Source: a virus | Lineage: Duplodnaviria; Heunggongvirae; Uroviricota; Caudoviricetes | Length of the DNA stretch: 64,000 bases | IMG/VR virus record: IMGVR_UViG_3300035034_002381 | Coordinates: 1 to 64,000 of that record | Strand: one strand, 5' to 3' | Part shown: piece after piece, positions 1,201-16,747 of the stretch | How positions within the stretch are numbered: the first letter of the stretch is position 1 | Layout of the letters: each line of letters begins with the position of its first letter | The notes under the pieces: model-generated | The model's database searches: none | What the model was told of the DNA's origin: nothing | What the model saw: the letters and a program-made list of their open reading frames with translations, nothing else | Program-made: the position numbers and the translations under genes

Positions 1201-2661
1201 ATGGTATTATTACAAATTATTGGAGTACTTGCAATTATTTTCGGTATTATTATGATGTTTTTACATCCTATTGCCAAACGAAAAGAACAGAAAATAATTG
1301 ACGAAAAACAAGCTGCCGAGGAGGCAAGAGAAAAAGGTCAATCATATAGACCTGATTTAAGATCATTAAGTAAACCTAACGCGTTTTCTTTATTATTTAC
1401 TAAAAGTAAATCCTGGTTAGTAATGGGATTAGGTTTAGTAGCAATACTAATTCAAGGATTATTCTTTTATAATCCTGCAGGGACTGCAACGGCAGTCCAA
1501 TATATTTGGGGTGGGGATGATCCTGTTACAACACAAGGGATCAAATTAAAATTGTATGGTAAAACGATACCCATCTCATTTGAGATAGCCATGCAGGATA
1601 TTATTGGTGAAAGCGAAGAATATGAAGAAGGAATTTATTATCGAAAAGGCCAACGAAGAGAATTTGCTGATGCGATTAAAGCAGATATTGCAGCATCTTT
1701 AATTGTTTCTGTTGATTACGCTAATGATTCTCTATTCTTGGATATGGCTGATAAAAATAGATCCGAGAAAAAATTGGTTTATGCTCGTATTTATCCAGTT
1801 TATGATCAAGCATTAAAGAATACTTGCAAGCTTATGGACGCCCAAGATTATATTTCCGGTGCATCCTCTCAGTTTGACTATTACTTGAAAGATCAAATGG
1901 AGAACGGTATGTATTTAACTGAGGAAGTTTATGAAGATGTTAAAACTATGCCTATGACTTTGGGTGACTCTCTATCAAGAACAGTTGCTGCGGGTGTGAT
2001 TAATGACGATAAACGTGAGAAGAAATATCGTATTCGTAAAGATCATAATGGTGAACCGATACGAGATGCATCTAACTCATTAAAGAGATATGGTTTAACT
2101 GTGCAACAAGCTGCTGTAACGAATATTGATTGGGAAGAATCCTTTGATGCTCGACTGCAACTACAAAAAGAACAAGTTGCACAAACTCAAATTGAGAAAC
2201 AAGAGGCGGAAAAGGAATACTATGCAACACAGAAAACTATTGCAAAGGGTGAAAGAGAAAAGGCTGAAGTGCGAGTAACATTGGAAAAGGCGCAGTTACA
2301 ACAAACGATTGCGGCGGAAACAAAAGCTAAATCTGCAAAATACAAAGAGCAGGAAGAGATTAATTTACTTGCTGCGGCTAAAAAGGAAGCTGAAAGAATT
2401 CGTGTGACTGCTGATGCTGATGCATATGAAATTATGAAAAAAGTTCAGGTAGGTATTACTCCCGAAACTGAGCTACAAATGAGATTGGATGCTGGAATTG
2501 CAGAAAAAGCGGCAATTGCTGGACCCACAGGTCTAAAACTACCTGATAATTTGACAATCATGACTATGCCAGGAAACGGAAAATCATCTGATGCTGGAAT
2601 TCTTGAATCAATTATCGGAGCCGAAATCTTAAAAGGTAACGGAAACATTAAAACAAAGTAA
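1201..2661 (+). CDS. membrane-anchored SPFH/band-7 (flotillin/HflK-like) protein, tentative
   Basis: 486-aa ORF; N-terminal TM helix LLQIIGVLAIIFGIIMMFL, a second hydrophobic segment, and a long Ala/Glu/Lys coiled-coil tail; family assigned by eye. Confidence 0.45.
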   Translation: MVLLQIIGVLAIIFGIIMMFLHPIAKRKEQKIIDEKQAAEEAREKGQSYRPDLRSLSKPNAFSLLFTKSKSWLVMGLGLVAILIQGLFFYNPAGTATAVQYIWGGDDPVTTQGIKLKLYGKTIPISFEIAMQDIIGESEEYEEGIYYRKGQRREFADAIKADIAASLIVSVDYANDSLFLDMADKNRSEKKLVYARIYPVYDQALKNTCKLMDAQDYISGASSQFDYYLKDQMENGMYLTEEVYEDVKTMPMTLGDSLSRTVAAGVINDDKREKKYRIRKDHNGEPIRDASNSLKRYGLTVQQAAVTNIDWEESFDARLQLQKEQVAQTQIEKQEAEKEYYATQKTIAKGEREKAEVRVTLEKAQLQQTIAAETKAKSAKYKEQEEINLLAAAKKEAERIRVTADADAYEIMKKVQVGITPETELQMRLDAGIAEKAAIAGPTGLKLPDNLTIMTMPGNGKSSDAGILESIIGAEILKGNGNIKTK

Positions 2662-3334: not shown

Positions 3335-3428
3335 AAATTCTTCTTAGAATCCATAAAACTTAGCTCATTGGTTGGGCATTTGTATAAGAACAAAAGGAGC
3401 GGTTCAATTCCGTAGACTAGAAGAATTT
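3335..3428 (+). ncRNA. stem-closed tRNA-mimic RNA (Y-RNA/YrlA-like architecture), module 1
   Basis: 10-bp terminal helix aaattcttct/agaagaattt (3335-3344/3419-3428); encloses the CTTAGAATCCATAAAACT motif, D-arm-like gctc-attggtt-gggc, hairpin tttgt-ataaga-acaaa and T-arm-like gcgg-ttcaatt-ccgt. Confidence 0.4.
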
Positions 3429-3432
3429 AATT

Positions 3433-3556
3433 GCCGGGTTAGTGTAAGGGTCAACACACGTAAAGTAAACATAGTGAACTTTACGAATCACTTAGAATAA
3501 CTAACTATACAATCCATATGGAGGACGGATAACTGGTTCGAGTCCAGTGCCTGGCA
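3433..3556 (+). ncRNA. 124-nt tRNA-like RNA with a large insertion between anticodon-position hairpin and T-arm
   Basis: acceptor gccgggt/gcctggc, D gtgt-aagggtca-acac, 8-bp hairpin cgtaaagt/actttacg, 46-nt insert carrying CTTAGAATAACTAACT, T actgg-ttcgagt-ccagt. Confidence 0.4.
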
Positions 3557-3567
3557 CAAATTAAATT

Positions 3568-3620
3568 GCAGAGTGGTGTAGTGGCAGCACACGTAAACGC
3601 CGATTAGTGAAGCATTTACG
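3568..3620 (+). ncRNA. paralogous 5'-half tRNA-like fragment
   Basis: gcagagtggtgtagtggcagcacacgtaaa...tagtgaagcatttacg parallels the 5' half of 3433-3556 (D gtgt/acac, hairpin cgtaaa/tttacg); no T-arm follows. Confidence 0.3.
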
Positions 3621-3760: not shown

Positions 3761-3894
3761 ACCAATAAAAATTCGACTTAGAATACCTAAAACTAAAGTT
3801 TAAATTAGCTCATTGAGCATATTTTTTTTATAAATACGGTCTAGGTTAATCCCTAGAAATTCAAACGTTTAGTCGAATTTTTATTGGTTTTTTA
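3761..3894 (+). ncRNA. stem-closed tRNA-mimic RNA (Y-RNA/YrlA-like architecture), module 3
   Basis: perfect 18-bp terminal helix accaataaaaattcgact/agtcgaatttttattggt (3761-3778/3871-3888) followed by a T-run; encloses CTTAGAATACCTAAAACT, tagctcattgagca and T-arm-like tctagg-ttaatc-cctaga; has its own upstream promoter motif. Confidence 0.5.
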
Positions 3895-4419: not shown

Positions 4420-4528
4420 CTGTCAATTAAGTATCAAATAAATTTTTAATATATTGATTGATTTGAATATATTAAACAACCTCTCTTAGAAAATCTAAGT
4501 TAGAGAAGTTAAATCATCAAAAACAAAA

Positions 4529-6472
4529 ATGATGTCTACAAAAACAAAATCTTTATCAAAAGAAAGAGTTGCCTCTGTTTCAGGAGATAAACCAAGACTC
4601 CCAAGAACTCTTGAAACTCTTCAAGGTTTAAGAACAGCTCAAGGATTATCTGACGCGCAAATTGCGAATATGTTAGATAACGCATTATCAGAAACTTCAA
4701 GTAACCATATTATATATGTTCTTGAAAGATTAATGTTACACATTGGTGATGTGAGTCGACAACACAATATGTTGAAAGAATTGGGAATTAATTCTAAATC
4801 TGGTGGCGCACAAGAACGTGGGGTATTCCGATCTATTTTACGATGGTGGGAAAAAACTTTGCCTGAATCATTTGCAGAAAATCTTCGAGTATTCGCTGAA
4901 TTCTCAGTTTTGGAAAACTTGATGTTTTATGAACTTAAAACTGAAAGAGCAACTGGAAAATTAATTGGAAAGGAAATTTTGTTTCCTATGCCAAGTAAAG
5001 TACATGAATTTCTAGCGAACGAAATTCACAAAAATAGAAATGTGAATCTTATTGCTAAGCATTTACCAAAATATGACACTGGTAAAAGTCGAACCACTAA
5101 GAAAACCATGCATATTAAAGACGGTAAGGATAGTTTCATGTGGAAACTTCCTGAAGGTAAAGCTTGGGTTAAATTAAATGGTGATCTAATCGAAGGAGAA
5201 TCTGTTAAGATTACTCAAGGTGATGTAGTTTCATATCCTCGTGATAAATCTTCACATGTTTTAGAAAAACAAAGATTCGTTAATTCTTGGATTTCTAGTT
5301 TCTGTAAAGTTATGGGATGGTCAATTACTGATTATAACAATTTCCGTAAACAACAAAACACACCGGAACAAAAATTCTCAAGTAAACGTGTTTTAAACAT
5401 GCCGAAATCAGATTTCTGGAAAATGCTTGATGGTTTGACTTCTGGTCAAAGATACAGAGTTTCTAGAATGTTAGATTTCAATGCGGAAAAGTGGGGAGAA
5501 TTACCGAAATGGTATGATTTGTGGGAAGGTAACCAAGAAAAAGTAGCCGATAAACTTCGACAAGCTGCAGCTGATGGTGATACTGAAGCAACAGAAAAAT
5601 TGAAGAAAGAATTCAAGGTTAAATCTACTGGAAAAAACACTGTTGATTTATTGAAAGATATGTTAACAGGTAATCATGACGATAGATTCATTAACAACAC
5701 TTATCAATCTATGATTGAGAATATGGATATTGTTGCGAATGTTTTTCCAGTAATTGATGGTTCCGCATCTATGGATTGCCAAATTGGTGGAGGATGGAGT
5801 CCTCGAAGTTCTCGAAGTTCTACGGATAGACAACTTTCAAATAGAGCTGTCGCATATGCTATGGCAATTGCATTTTCTACTAGAAACCCAGTACCAGGAT
5901 TCCGTAACACGTTCGGATGGTTCTCCAGAAACTTTCACATTGTTGGAAAATCTAAGTATGTGAACAATGCACCTAATCAATACGTTGATTCTGGAAGTTA
6001 TACTAAAAAGGTTAATGAGTTCAATGTTTTATCTGAAACTAATACTTTCACTGAAAACTACTCAAACTTGAGAAAATCTGATCCAGGAGAAATATCATCT
6101 ACAAATATGGGTTCTGTGATTACTCACTTCACAAATTTAGTAGAAACTGGTAAATTTCATGTTGAGGATCTTCCATCTGCGTTACTTTTTATCACAGATA
6201 ATGAAAACAACACAGGAATTAGTCCGAAGGAAGCGTTGGCAATAGCTAACAAAATTGGATGGTCTCCATTGGTTATTTTCTGGGGGTTAACTAAAGTTCC
6301 AAGCAACATGATGAATCAGTATAAGGGAATTCCTAACTGCTTACTTGTTGGAGGATTTAATGAATCAGTACTTTCACAAGTACTTAGGGGTATTAAATCT
6401 GGTTCAGTTGATCCAGAGGATGAAATCTGGAGTATTGTCGAAAATAAAAGATATGCAGTAATTACTGAGTAA
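4529..6472 (+). CDS. Ro60/TROVE-like (or DUF2828-like) protein with C-terminal vWA domain
   Basis: 647-aa ORF; MIDAS-type DGSASM, SSTNMG, LLFITDNENNTG and VGGFNESVLSQV resemble, by eye, the Ro60 vWA motifs DVSASM, GGTDCS, TDNETFAG and CGFDTGALDV; helical N-terminal two thirds. Confidence 0.55.
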   Translation: MMSTKTKSLSKERVASVSGDKPRLPRTLETLQGLRTAQGLSDAQIANMLDNALSETSSNHIIYVLERLMLHIGDVSRQHNMLKELGINSKSGGAQERGVFRSILRWWEKTLPESFAENLRVFAEFSVLENLMFYELKTERATGKLIGKEILFPMPSKVHEFLANEIHKNRNVNLIAKHLPKYDTGKSRTTKKTMHIKDGKDSFMWKLPEGKAWVKLNGDLIEGESVKITQGDVVSYPRDKSSHVLEKQRFVNSWISSFCKVMGWSITDYNNFRKQQNTPEQKFSSKRVLNMPKSDFWKMLDGLTSGQRYRVSRMLDFNAEKWGELPKWYDLWEGNQEKVADKLRQAAADGDTEATEKLKKEFKVKSTGKNTVDLLKDMLTGNHDDRFINNTYQSMIENMDIVANVFPVIDGSASMDCQIGGGWSPRSSRSSTDRQLSNRAVAYAMAIAFSTRNPVPGFRNTFGWFSRNFHIVGKSKYVNNAPNQYVDSGSYTKKVNEFNVLSETNTFTENYSNLRKSDPGEISSTNMGSVITHFTNLVETGKFHVEDLPSALLFITDNENNTGISPKEALAIANKIGWSPLVIFWGLTKVPSNMMNQYKGIPNCLLVGGFNESVLSQVLRGIKSGSVDPEDEIWSIVENKRYAVITE

Positions 6473-8982: not shown

Positions 8983-9118
8983 TATATTTAAACAAACAAT
9001 AATGAAAACACAAATCAACATAACTACCAGTTATTCTTTAAGAAGCTTATGTACGTCGCTGAGACTATATGAGACAGGGTATCTATGTTGATCAAACATA
9101 TTTTTGATTACAAACTAA

Positions 9119-9150
9119 ACCCTGTCTATTTAATTAGACAGGGTTTTTTT
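9119..9150 (+). terminator. intrinsic terminator
   Basis: accctgtcta-tttaat-tagacagggt followed by a T7 run. Confidence 0.8.
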
Positions 9151-9154
9151 ATTT

Positions 9155-9245
9155 GGAAGATAAAGCAGCTGCATTGGAGCGGCGACTAGCCTTGAAAACT
9201 AGGTCTCGGAGAAATCTGGGTGGGGTTCGAGTCCTCTGTCTTCCT
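9155..9245 (+). tRNA. tRNA-Ser(TGA)
   Basis: acceptor ggaagat/gtcttcc, anticodon loop ctTGAaa, long variable arm, T gggg-ttcgagt-cctc. Confidence 0.75.
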
Positions 9246-9277
9246 CAAAGTTTTAGTTCATTGACATATTAATATTA

Positions 9278-9361
9278 GAGGATGCGGTAATGGTGGTTAT
9301 TACAGTATCTTGGAAAGGTACCGATCGTTTATTCGGTCAGGGTTCGACTCCCTCATCCTCT
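9278..9361 (+). tRNA. tRNA-Ser(GGA)
   Basis: acceptor gaggatg/catcctc, anticodon arm gtatc-ttGGAaa-ggtac, variable arm gatcg-tttatt-cggtc, T aggg-ttcgact-ccct; ends uncertain by 1 nt. Confidence 0.75.
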
Positions 9362-9365
9362 GCTA

Positions 9366-9488
9366 TGTTCTTCTTAGAATAACTAATTTATGTAAATGTG
9401 AGTTCGAATCTCATCAAATGCTTTTAGCATCTGTAGCCAAATGGTTAGGCAATATACTTGAAATATATAACAAACGATTAGAAGAACA
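9366..9488 (+). ncRNA. circularly permuted tRNA-like element closed by a 9-bp leader-trailer helix
   Basis: order: helix 5' strand tgttcttct, CTTAGAATAACTAATTT, T-arm gtgag-ttcgaat-ctcat, capped acceptor hairpin caaatgc-tttta-gcatctg, ta, D-arm gcc-aaatggtta-ggc, anticodon arm atata-ctTGAaa-tatat, helix 3' strand agaagaaca. Confidence 0.5.
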
Positions 9489-9492
9489 ACAT

Positions 9493-9565
9493 GCTTCCAT
9501 AGTATAAAGGTTCATTATTCCTGTTTTGTAATCAGGCGATATCGGTTCGATTCCGATTGGGAGCT
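9493..9565 (+). tRNA. tRNA-Thr(TGT)
   Basis: acceptor gcttcca/tgggagc, anticodon loop ttTGTaa (31-39 T.T), T atcgg-ttcgatt-ccgat. Confidence 0.75.
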
Positions 9566-9714
9566 CAATGAATATGATGTTTATTTAGATCCTAAAAATG
9601 ATTATCTTATTGGTATAGATAGTAAAAAAATTGAAAAGGTCGAAGAATTGTATAATGTGCGTAATAATAGACAAGGATAATTTATCTTGGAATGATATTC
9701 AAAATAAAATAAAT

Positions 9715-9795
9715 GTTTCAGTGGTGGAATGGTAGACACGTCGGTCTTAGGAACCGATGCCGAAAGGCGTGAGAGTTCGAGTCTCTCCTGGAATA
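9715..9795 (+). tRNA. tRNA-Leu(TAG), canonical class II
   Basis: acceptor gtttcag/ctggaat, D gtgg-aatggtag-acac, anticodon arm tcggt-ctTAGga-accga, variable arm tgccgaaaggcgt, T gagag-ttcgagt-ctctc. Confidence 0.8.
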
Positions 9796-9796
9796 C

Positions 9797-9876
9797 ACTC
9801 TGGTGGATTAGGTAAATTGGTACAGCTAAACGGCTTAGACCCGTATCCCTTCTGGGTTCGAATCCCAGTCAGAGTA
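9797..9876 (+). tRNA. atypical 80-nt tRNA, anticodon TAG (Leu codons), expanded D region, short variable region
   Basis: acceptor actctgg/tcagagt, D region tggattaggtaaattggtacagctaa, anticodon arm acgg-ctTAGac-ccgt, T ctggg-ttcgaat-cccag, A73. Confidence 0.55.
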
Positions 9877-9881
9877 CAAAT

Positions 9882-9961
9882 GCTCCTGTGGTTTATGTAA
9901 ATTGGCACAGCTAAGCGGCTTAAACCCGCAACCTTTATGGGTTCGAGTCCCATCAGGAGTA
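9882..9961 (+). tRNA. atypical 80-nt tRNA, anticodon TAA (Leu codons), same family
   Basis: acceptor gctcctg/caggagt, D region tggtttatgtaaattggcacagctaa, anticodon arm gcgg-ctTAAac-ccgc, T atggg-ttcgagt-cccat, A73. Confidence 0.55.
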
Positions 9962-16355: not shown

Positions 16356-16688
16356 ATGAAAAAATGGGATGATATAAGAAACTCGATGTCTGGAAATTCA
16401 GATATTATAGAAGTTTGGAAGAAAGTTGTAGATAAACACCAAAATGAAGAAATTGAGTGGATTGAAAACCTTAGAAAACAAGGTTATAAAGCATCTCATC
16501 CTAATGACGGTTGGGTAGACAGAGAAAATAACAAAATACATCTGGTTTATCCACAATTCAACGATGGAATTGGTGTGAATGATAAACTAATGATTGGTAG
16601 TCCAAACAGTGATAATAATCGACCTGTGCGAATAACCGGCATTGATGAATTTGCAATGACATATTATTTATTTGAAGACTTAGAATAA
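16356..16688 (+). CDS. hypothetical protein
   Basis: 110-aa ORF followed by a terminator. Confidence 0.65.
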   Translation: MKKWDDIRNSMSGNSDIIEVWKKVVDKHQNEEIEWIENLRKQGYKASHPNDGWVDRENNKIHLVYPQFNDGIGVNDKLMIGSPNSDNNRPVRITGIDEFAMTYYLFEDLE

Positions 16689-16712
16689 CCATAACATATT
16701 ATCCTTTTCTTA

Positions 16713-16747
16713 ATGACCAAGATTCTAAGAATCTTGGTCATTTTTTA
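16713..16747 (+). terminator. intrinsic terminator
   Basis: 13-bp stem atgaccaagattc/gaatcttggtcat with loop taa and a T-run. Confidence 0.85.

Follow-up and report, generated by a model that had tools for sequence, protein, structure and literature searches.

Bacterial YrlA RNAs have been described as resembling a circularly permuted tRNA with a closed acceptor stem (bioRxiv 10.1101/312249). They have no anticodon loop, and the equivalent of the anticodon stem runs into the stem which binds Ro60 (Wang et al. 2018, bioRxiv 10.1101/312249). The criteria for such an RNA are that it lies at most 4 kb from Ro60 on the same strand, that GNCGAAN0-1G is found near its 5' end, and that T arm, closed acceptor and D arm form one module (PMC4201824). 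The same study found YrlA RNAs in 22 phages, warned of false positives from tRNA dimers, and reported that the YrlA of M. smegmatis, which has a closed acceptor of 7 base pairs (bp), is cleaved by RNase P and has CCA added in vivo (PMC4201824). The Ro60 of Thermus phage phiLo binds two Yrl RNAs (Yrl1/2), both with a CGAA motif and both encoded upstream of the Ro60 gene (PMC12135203), and some jumbo phages carry TROVE proteins (PMC7824862). Here we compare with these systems a permuted tRNA-like element at positions 9366-9488, plus strand, of a 64,000-nucleotide (nt) stretch of phage DNA (Caudoviricetes; positions 1 to 64,000 of IMG/VR record IMGVR_UViG_3300035034_002381). This whole stretch is called the window, and its numbering is used throughout. 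The window belongs to metagenomic contig k141_21517 (ENA ERZ27315366), and the source phage is large, with 31% GC and a T4-type capsid protein.

By analogy with the Ro60/Y RNA systems, the element is probably the gene for a small non-coding Y-RNA-like tRNA mimic, which would be released by tRNA maturation, dock on a Ro60-like protein and act through its tRNA module. The first-pass annotation, made from the DNA letters, knew of no report of such an element in a phage tRNA array in this form. The kind is known, as Y-RNA-like tRNA mimics beside phage Ro60 genes have already been published (PMC4201824; PMC12135203), but the form is new. New are the full anticodon arm, the opening on the variable side, the UAGAA motif, the divergent Ro60, the arrays of cassettes and the embedding in a tRNA array. 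Reading the sequence of 9100-9800 places each segment proposed by the first-pass annotation where it had been put:

9366-9374, plus strand: closing stem, 5' strand UGUUCUUCU (tgttcttct), partner of 9480-9488
9375-9397, plus strand: 23-nt 5' linker, with UAGAA at 9375-9379 and the remainder at 9380-9397
9375-9379, plus strand: UAGAA motif directly 3' of the 5' strand of the closing stem, a candidate protein-binding site
9380-9397, plus strand: remainder of the 5' linker, A-rich, its last base equivalent to U48; UAUGU.AAU partly conserved (tentative)
9398-9414, plus strand: T arm GUGAG-UUCGAAU-CUCAU with a canonical T loop
9415-9433, plus strand: capped acceptor hairpin, 3' strand CAAAUGC, loop UUUUA, 5' strand GCAUCUG
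9434-9435, plus strand: UA (tRNA positions 8-9)
9436-9450, plus strand: D arm GCC-AAAUGGUUA-GGC, with a 3-bp D stem of class-II type
9452-9468, plus strand: anticodon arm AUAUA-CUUGAAA-UAUAU, anticodon UGA at 9459-9461
9469-9479, plus strand: 11-nt 3' linker, A/C-rich (AACAAACGAUU)
9480-9488, plus strand: closing stem, 3' strand AGAAGAACA (agaagaaca)

The closing stem is an uninterrupted helix of 9 bp after which the one-sided UAG follows. In the acceptor six of the seven pairs are formed and the remaining position is a C5.A68 mismatch (9431/9417). The element takes up the space between tRNA-Ser(GGA) at 9277-9363 and tRNA-Thr(UGU) at 9493-9566: its closing stem starts 2 nt past the end of the former and ends 4 nt ahead of the 5' end of the latter. 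Such flush ends, 2-4 nt from the termini of the adjacent tRNAs, are found in the window and in two relatives, L130 and L132. A second assembly, L004, contains the element with 100% identity between different flanks, which shows that it is not an assembly artefact. The identity covers 417 bases (window 9150-9566, L004 3140-3557) and includes a tRNA-like sequence, tRNA-Ser, the element and tRNA-Thr; the next tRNA-Leu is far more divergent between the two, with many substitutions in the alignment, and window positions 9567-9714 (148 nt) are missing from L004. Read from the two sequences, this pattern suggests mosaic exchange inside the tRNA array.

A comparative search for covarying pairs had been proposed as a check of the structure. 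A covariance model (R1) was built from the window element as the single sequence and the structure of the first-pass annotation. Relatives were gathered by means of the prohead protease and of a conserved protein of 647 amino acids (aa) encoded at 4529-6472, and were viewed as 20-kb slices. A second route was a DNA pattern scan which used the T loop and the D arm only and no protein information. The model finds six full-length matches, of 61-90 bits, in independent and distant phage contigs:

L132, 16944-17069: 90 bits
L122, 8590-8719: 72.5 bits
L142, 4128-4249, minus strand: 72 bits, from the DNA pattern scan
L130, 16350-16477: 70 bits
L135, 9576-9695: 68 bits
L141, 2088-2201, minus strand: 61 bits, from the DNA pattern scan

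The window element and its six homologues were fitted to the model to give an alignment of seven sequences (A8). Standard pairs make up 95.6% of the pair cells, compared with 67% after column shuffling (none of 500 shuffles reaches the observed value) and with 33-41% when the partners are slid. Compensatory changes, i.e. changes on both sides, occur in 24 of the 29 pairs. By helix they amount to 8 of 9 in the closing stem, 3 of 5 in the T stem, 7 of 7 in the acceptor, 1 of 3 in the D stem and 5 of 5 in the anticodon stem; the T arm is paired in 100% of its cells. An independent MAFFT alignment of five sequences analysed with RNAalifold again yields the closing stem together with the T, D and anticodon arms; 13 of its 21 pairs show compensatory changes. 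In the closing, T and anticodon stems of the seven sequences G.U wobbles are present and A.C oppositions absent, which points to selection on the plus-strand RNA. All five helices are upheld by covariation and the structure is confirmed. An anticodon stem of the YrlA style, formed by the upstream UAUGU and the downstream AUAUA, is possible in the window copy; read from the sequence, it is not possible in L122; it does not covary and was dropped.

Several other features are conserved in this set. The acceptor stem is 7 bp long in all seven sequences, with unconserved cap loops of 4-10 nt and no encoded CCA. A C.A or A.C opposition is found at acceptor position 5-68 in five of the seven (window, L132, L135, L141 and L142); in L122 the mismatch is at 4-69 instead. 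The sequence of the D arm is nearly invariant. The anticodon loop CUUGAA(A/C), U33 and A37 included, is unchanged in the five closest orthologues, in which G1 opens the acceptor; it is UUCUUAA in L142 and CUUAUAA in L141. A stretch resembling CA(A)CAAA is conserved 3' of the anticodon stem, and a small hairpin in the 5' linker, at the place of a variable arm, is predicted in three of the seven (L122, L130 and L132), the window copy not being one of them.

It should be noted how isolated the window is at the level of close similarity. When the region was run against GenBank phages with megablast and blastn, only the neighbouring tRNA-Thr was matched and no close relative came up. An exact 37-mer scan of IMG/VR gave 0 matches, a related-locus search with each of two neighbouring proteins gave no relatives, and look-ups with window proteins gave, besides the source contig, one short (2.2 kb) Logan contig. 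The L004 copy, being identical, adds nothing to the covariation, and the contig of a further relative, L088, stops just short of the orthologous site.

The window copy alone folds weakly (z = -1.16). Its anticodon hairpin, which consists entirely of A and U in the stem, is missing from the minimum free energy (MFE) structure; the centroid has the closing stem, the T hairpin and the acceptor hairpin, again without the anticodon hairpin, and the model structure lies 2.3 kcal/mol above the MFE. For most homologues, the closing stem, the T arm, the capped acceptor and the anticodon arm are all part of the MFE structure itself. Thermodynamic folding, another of the proposed checks, is weak for the window copy and gives these four helices for most homologues. 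ARAGORN does not call the element in its genomic order in the window, nor any tmRNA there. The Rfam tRNA model (RF00005) gives 23.2 bits on 9427-9495, its gathering threshold being 29, and this match covers the 5' half plus a spurious 3' strand and does not contain the T arm. When the five UGA orthologues are re-permuted in silico, ARAGORN calls all five tRNA-Ser(tga), also with the closing stem as variable arm; a re-permuted construct which keeps all linkers is rejected. These calls, with the covariation in five helices, bear out the structural reading of the first-pass annotation, a tRNA opened by the variable region with its acceptor closed and its UGA arm intact.

The candidate protein partner is encoded upstream of the array:

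4529-6472, plus strand: divergent Ro60 (TROVE + vWA) homologue, 647 aa

The relationship to Ro60 surfaced only through the fold and a PHROG profile. Pfam TROVE has no match in the 647-aa family. No link emerged either when the window was searched by tblastn with a canonical TROVE protein, when the family was used as a sequence profile against the PDB, or when hhalign set it against one TROVE sequence. The window protein matches phrog_850 ("RNA-binding protein") with E=8e-16. This profile is also hit by two canonical TROVE proteins along the entire length of the proteins (L089 E=3e-47, L193 E=2e-37), and the L141 homologue matches its ring region (E=1.6e-5). An AlphaFold2 model made from 36 family members has a predicted local distance difference test score (pLDDT) of 81.8 and a predicted template modelling score (pTM) of 0.78. 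Foldseek of this model against the PDB gives Ro60 in all of the eight best matches, with full-length alignments and E about 1e-5, and in a fold comparison over 48,164 chains three Ro60 representatives rank as the top three. The family carries a DGSGSM motif resembling the adhesion site that depends on metal ions (MIDAS), and scattered weak matches to vWA, S4 and vWA_Ro60. On the predicted fold and the profile matches, the 647-aa protein is a divergent homologue of Ro60. Residues about 133-240 form a beta-rich insert without counterpart in Ro60, with weak S4-domain matches in 5 of the 36 family members; the insert may be an extra RNA-binding domain.

A related phage, L089 (61% protease identity), encodes a canonical TROVE protein. 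Two repeated motifs, AUCUGAAGCGG and GUUCGAAGCGG, lie upstream of this gene and resemble the 5' strands of classical Y RNAs; motifs and gene are in the regions L089 1000-1900 and 1900-3510. The phage lineage seems to use either a canonical or a divergent Ro60.

The element lies 2.9 kb downstream of the stop codon of the Ro60-like gene on the same strand, and its homologues lie 0.3-5 kb from their Ro60-like genes. Among the loci from the DNA pattern scan which R1 matches best, the linkage is seen from the RNA side: homologues of the 647-aa protein are encoded 0.9 kb downstream of the element in L142 (tblastn E 5e-49) and 0.3 kb downstream in L141 (tblastn E 6e-32), in both cases on the same strand, and in L145 a vWA protein of 760 aa is encoded 100 nt downstream of a pattern-found element. 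In L193, a bacterial chromosome from a metagenome-assembled genome (MAG), a Pfam-confirmed TROVE + vWA_Ro60 gene lies 55 nt downstream of such an element. The L193 element has the YrlA topology, with terminal stem, loop-less anticodon stem, T arm, 6-bp capped acceptor, UA and D arm, and the sequences of its D arm and T loop are common to it and the window element.

The element under study is one member of a large family of cassettes. The cassette module has a terminal stem of 9-12 bp, whose sequence varies from copy to copy and yet stays complementary. The 5' strand ends in CU and is followed by UAGAA(U/C/A); the 3' strand begins with AG, preceded by U in 93%. Since the scripts which search for cassettes take TTAGAA as their anchor, the presence of the motif follows from the search; its sixth position is U in 60% of 55 distinct cassettes. 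In the window CTTAGAAW occurs 23 times, with 9.8 occurrences expected, and five of the seven plus-strand copies of CTTAGAAT fall in tRNA regions. Of 33 loci which contain the 647-aa gene and sequence upstream of it, 25 show one or more strict UAGAA cassettes in the 2 kb upstream of the gene and on its strand. As a control, 66 regions upstream of the protease gene gave none. In the loci with this gene 95 cassettes are on the strand of the gene and 18 on the opposite strand, and 43 of 54 distinct cassettes lie within 3.2 kb upstream of it, many of them 10-450 nt from the start codon. Across the closing stems of all cassettes G.U and A.C mismatches are equally frequent (17 vs 17). The window contains the following further cassettes:

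3336-3427, plus strand: sister cassette, closing stem AAUUCUUCU/AGAAGAAUU followed by UAGAAU; D, anticodon-like and T arms in normal order, uncalled by tRNA finders
3770-3879, plus strand: sister cassette, 12-bp closing stem and UAGAAU; normal-order tRNA-like cargo, uncalled; 25 bits with R1
4478-4510, plus strand: mini-cassette, closing stem and UAGAAA, 15-nt interior; 19 nt upstream of the start codon of the Ro60-like gene
3483-3613 and from 4357: weaker cassette candidates upstream of the Ro60-like gene

The cargo differs between copies. Normal-order tRNAs called by ARAGORN are found in L122 (9016-9138), L130 (9876-9994), L132 (9876-9986) and L120 (5439-5556), weaker permuted relatives with capped acceptors in L122 (15096-15223) and L104 (517-644), and a copy apparently opened at the anticodon loop as in YrlA, read by eye only, in L108 (3704-3828); further cassettes hold small cargo of one or two hairpins. 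The terminal stem is attached on the variable-region side in the element under study and at the acceptor end in the sister cassettes. The in-cassette tRNA-Ile of L122 (9045-9119) likewise has an A5.C68 opposition. Between two small open reading frames (ORFs) of the window, at 16679-16729, a short gap holds two inverted copies of CTTAGAAT, which may be a hairpin or terminator reusing the motif. A kink-turn or bulge-helix-bulge at the UAGAA junction was dropped as without consistent support; so were retron, integron-attC-like and ribozyme readings of the cassettes, as nothing in Rfam matched at E<1 and linked enzymes were not found.

We propose that the element is transcribed within the tRNA array and that trimming of the 3' end of tRNA-Ser(GGA) together with RNase P cleavage at tRNA-Thr(UGU) would release an RNA of about 125-129 nt. 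As the covariation shows, the ends of this RNA pair as the 9-bp stem around a tRNA-Ser-like body composed of T arm, capped acceptor, D arm and UGA anticodon arm, the break in the permuted body lying between the anticodon stem and the variable region. In analogy with Ro60 and its Y RNAs, the terminal stem with UAGAA would be the docking site for the divergent Ro60 homologue. The tRNA-shaped module would be the effector end: it may bring in a tRNA-binding factor, titrate it, or link the Ro60-like ring to it. Because the acceptor is closed and CCA is not encoded, the RNA as made would not be aminoacylatable. A canonical tRNA-Ser(UGA) in L130, and other anticodon loops combined with the same Ser-type D arm, argue against a role in decoding.

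A number of observations weigh against a Y-RNA-like tRNA mimic. The link to Ro60 rests on gene neighbourhood, predicted fold and analogy. A strict cassette is missing upstream of the gene in 8 of the 33 loci, and a terminator-like hairpin (9117-9146) lies between the array with the element and the Ro60-like gene. The motif is UAGAA and not GNCGAAN0-1G or CGAA: the sequence after the stem is UAGAAUAAC, the sole CGAA of the element lies in the T loop, and UAGAA has only GAA in common with the published Ro60-contact motif. The anticodon loop which is invariant in five orthologues, the strict 7-bp acceptor and G1 would be superfluous for a pure mimic, and in YrlA they are lacking or variable. The Rfam YrlA model (RF02553) gives 16 bits compared with a gathering threshold of 69, and ordinary tRNA-tRNA junctions in the same window score higher than the element (21.8 and 24.6 bits). 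The Infernal YrlA check proposed in the first-pass annotation therefore stays below threshold, but the local match aligns the T arm, capped acceptor and D arm with model positions 30-81. The low score weighs little because the model also misses the L193 element beside the Pfam-confirmed TROVE gene (no hit at E<=0.5).

The first-pass annotation had left the choice between a Y-RNA-like mimic and a permuted tRNA-Ser-like gene. The former is now better supported, with a Ro60 homologue encoded 2.9 kb upstream and with elements beside Ro60-like or TROVE genes elsewhere, and a permuted tRNA-Ser which decodes is the less likely of the two. A genuine permuted tRNA-Ser(UGA) would be cut by RNase P 5' of G9427, its cap trimmed and CCA added, after which it would be charged and decode UCA/UCN. 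The product would be either two-piece, held together by the acceptor stem and by the closing stem as a 9-bp long variable arm, or circularised and re-opened. Much of the conservation would suit such a tRNA: in the five UGA orthologues CUUGAA(A/C) with U33 and A37 is invariant while the anticodon stem covaries, the acceptor has exactly 7 bp and starts with G1, and ARAGORN calls tRNA-Ser(tga) in each after re-permutation. Neither the window nor the 22 kb of L132, both partial genomes, contains a tRNA-Ser(UGA) called by ARAGORN, though the window has an uncalled class-II tRNA-like sequence with a CUUGAAA loop at 9155-9244; M. smegmatis YrlA sets a precedent for the RNase P cut and CCA addition (PMC4201824), and other phage tRNAs in the window likewise have no encoded CCA. 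We nevertheless hold this reading to be unlikely. The canonical tRNA-Ser(tga) of L130 lies 1.1 kb upstream of its permuted copy, and L142 and L141 keep the Ser-type D arm with CUU and UAU anticodons and would miscode if charged. The linkers of 11 and 23 nt stretch the variable region far beyond that of known tRNAs, in line with the rejection of the full construct by ARAGORN; no bulge-helix-bulge is present, an RNA ligase was not found among the window ORFs scanned, and the reading accounts neither for the conservation of the A.C mismatch nor for the shared UAGAA module, which is also found with non-tRNA cargo. An RNA which is Y RNA and working tRNA at once may be imagined, docked on Ro60, opened by RNase P and CCA-tailed as M. 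smegmatis YrlA is, two-piece, chargeable with serine and with a functional UGA anticodon, its long variable arm being the Ro60-binding stem. If true, this would couple a phage Ro60 ribonucleoprotein physically to aminoacylation or to the ribosome; we find such a combination rather improbable.

Phage tRNA arrays are thought to counter tRNA-targeting defences, and the element could be a decoy or sponge which is independent of Ro60 and titrates a host defence enzyme directed at tRNA (an anticodon nuclease or an acceptor-end toxin) or a modification enzyme. The intact and conserved anticodon arm, the blocked acceptor end and the position in a large phage tRNA array agree with this, as do similar elements in bacterial MAG contigs beside SPFH genes with no Ro60 gene detected. 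A decoy would leave unexplained both the terminal stem with UAGAA, which non-tRNA cargos share, and the tight linkage of the cassettes to the Ro60-like gene, and no defence-related partner was identified; we consider it doubtful. At the level of DNA, the inverted repeat could delimit a tRNA-gene cassette which moves or recombines, and the permutation could be a by-product of excision and re-insertion, since circular excision and re-opening would yield it. The cargo is indeed variable, and the terminal repeats are perfectly complementary beside a fixed short motif. This explanation is very improbable in view of the covarying internal helices with their G.U pairs, the strong strand bias and the lack of a linked integrase or transposase; moreover, the repeats differ between copies in one genome, which is unexpected for the site of a recombinase. 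That the element is the decaying remnant of a tandem tRNA duplication, i.e. two truncated pseudogenes, is suggested by the order of T arm and 3' acceptor followed by 5' acceptor and D arm, which resembles a tRNA-tRNA junction, and by the scores which the YrlA model gives to real junctions (the caveat of PMC4201824). We give this next to no credence: compensatory conservation extends over phages whose neighbouring protein is only 25-58% identical, the acceptor strands covary with each other in 7 of 7 pairs, and the covariation of the seven sequences together with the ARAGORN calls after re-permutation excludes it.

Capped-acceptor permuted tRNA-like elements with anticodon arms were also seen in MAG contigs at L197 5698-5817, L171 1473-1593 (minus strand) and L199 4621-4738 (minus strand), and in L195, L194 and L178/L200. 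SPFH/Band_7 genes follow 160-490 nt downstream of these elements, and a Ro60 gene was not detected; the MAGs are of Leptospiraceae, Campylobacteraceae and Christensenellales type. A Band_7 protein is also encoded in the window (1201-2661), beside the tRNA arrays.

The arrays contain further sequences matched by the tRNA model and missed by ARAGORN:

9155-9244: class-II-like, CUUGAAA loop, directly upstream of tRNA-Ser(GGA)
9809-9868: partial match
9882-9961: 80 nt, 33.7 bits
10788-10899: 112 nt, 35.7 bits, interrupted by a large insertion; L088 has a counterpart of 112 nt at 1561-1672

Very dense tRNA arrays are present in L130 (44 tRNA calls in 22 kb), L108 and L121/L099. Suppressor tRNAs are predicted, with tta in L130 (14326-14396) and L108 (2339-2412) and with cta in L121 and L099, which hints at stop-codon recoding in these relatives. 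A weak match to Tpt1/KptA (RNA 2'-phosphotransferase) is found near the arrays, and a gene resembling dual-specificity phosphatases lies close downstream of the Ro60-like gene, with one ORF of 61 aa between them. These genes may have RNA-repair functions. The matches are located as follows:

L132 2158-2610 and 12229-12705: Tpt1/KptA and phosphatase-like matches
L130 12229-12672: locus of the same set of matches

What the tRNA-like domain of bacterial Y RNAs binds in the cell, and to what end, is a question for which this phage lineage is a natural experiment. It shows several permutations of one tRNA body, at least one type of which keeps the full anticodon arm with a conserved anticodon, and it has a Ro60 clade which is hidden from Pfam TROVE and stands beside arrays of up to about seven Y-like cassettes. 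If confirmed, this would widen the known range of viral Ro60/Y RNA systems, would give a candidate for a new protein-binding motif in the stem with UAGAA, and would raise the question whether the tRNA mimicry of Y RNAs reaches interactions which depend on the anticodon, or charging. In more general terms, "tRNA arrays" of phages hold conserved non-tRNA genes which tRNA finders skip.

Among the known systems, the tRNA cluster of phage T4 contains stable non-tRNA RNAs (species 1 and 2, or RNA C and D) which are released by processing of the tRNA precursors. The element resembles these in being a non-tRNA RNA inside a phage tRNA cluster; we know of no Ro60 homologue in T4. The two-piece tmRNA, encoded by the permuted ssrA gene of alpha-proteobacteria and some cyanobacteria, has its acceptor cap excised to give a functional, chargeable molecule and so sets an example, in bacteria, of a tRNA-like gene in permuted form. 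It lacks an anticodon arm, contains an mRNA-like segment, and has its CCA encoded or acquired.

Permuted tRNA genes processed through circular intermediates are known from Cyanidioschyzon merolae and other algae and archaea (cited in PMC3400036, PMC4238349). Their precursors have a bulge-helix-bulge motif which a splicing endonuclease and a ligase convert to the circular intermediate; to our knowledge such enzymes are not known in bacteria, and none was seen in the window. The element is like these genes in the order of 3' half, intervening sequence and 5' half, in having all tRNA arms, and in its complementary leader and trailer. It differs in having no bulge-helix-bulge at the leader/trailer junction, in its long linkers, and in that a canonical isoacceptor coexists with it in L130.

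The closest likeness is to YrlA. The element is encoded near a Ro60 homologue on the same strand and within about 4 kb, its 5' end pairs with its 3' end in a terminal stem, a short motif close to the 5' end is conserved, the order of (V)-T arm, closed acceptor stem-loop, UA and D arm is the same, and there are multiple Y-like RNAs per locus. Unlike YrlA, it keeps a full anticodon hairpin with a canonical 7-nt loop, in which all five stem pairs show compensatory changes, its terminal stem branches off next to the variable region, and its acceptor always has 7 bp with a recurrent A.C mismatch. The candidate partner has diverged too far for Pfam TROVE to detect, and carries an additional beta-rich insert; the element itself is embedded in a tRNA array, with its ends set by the neighbouring tRNAs.

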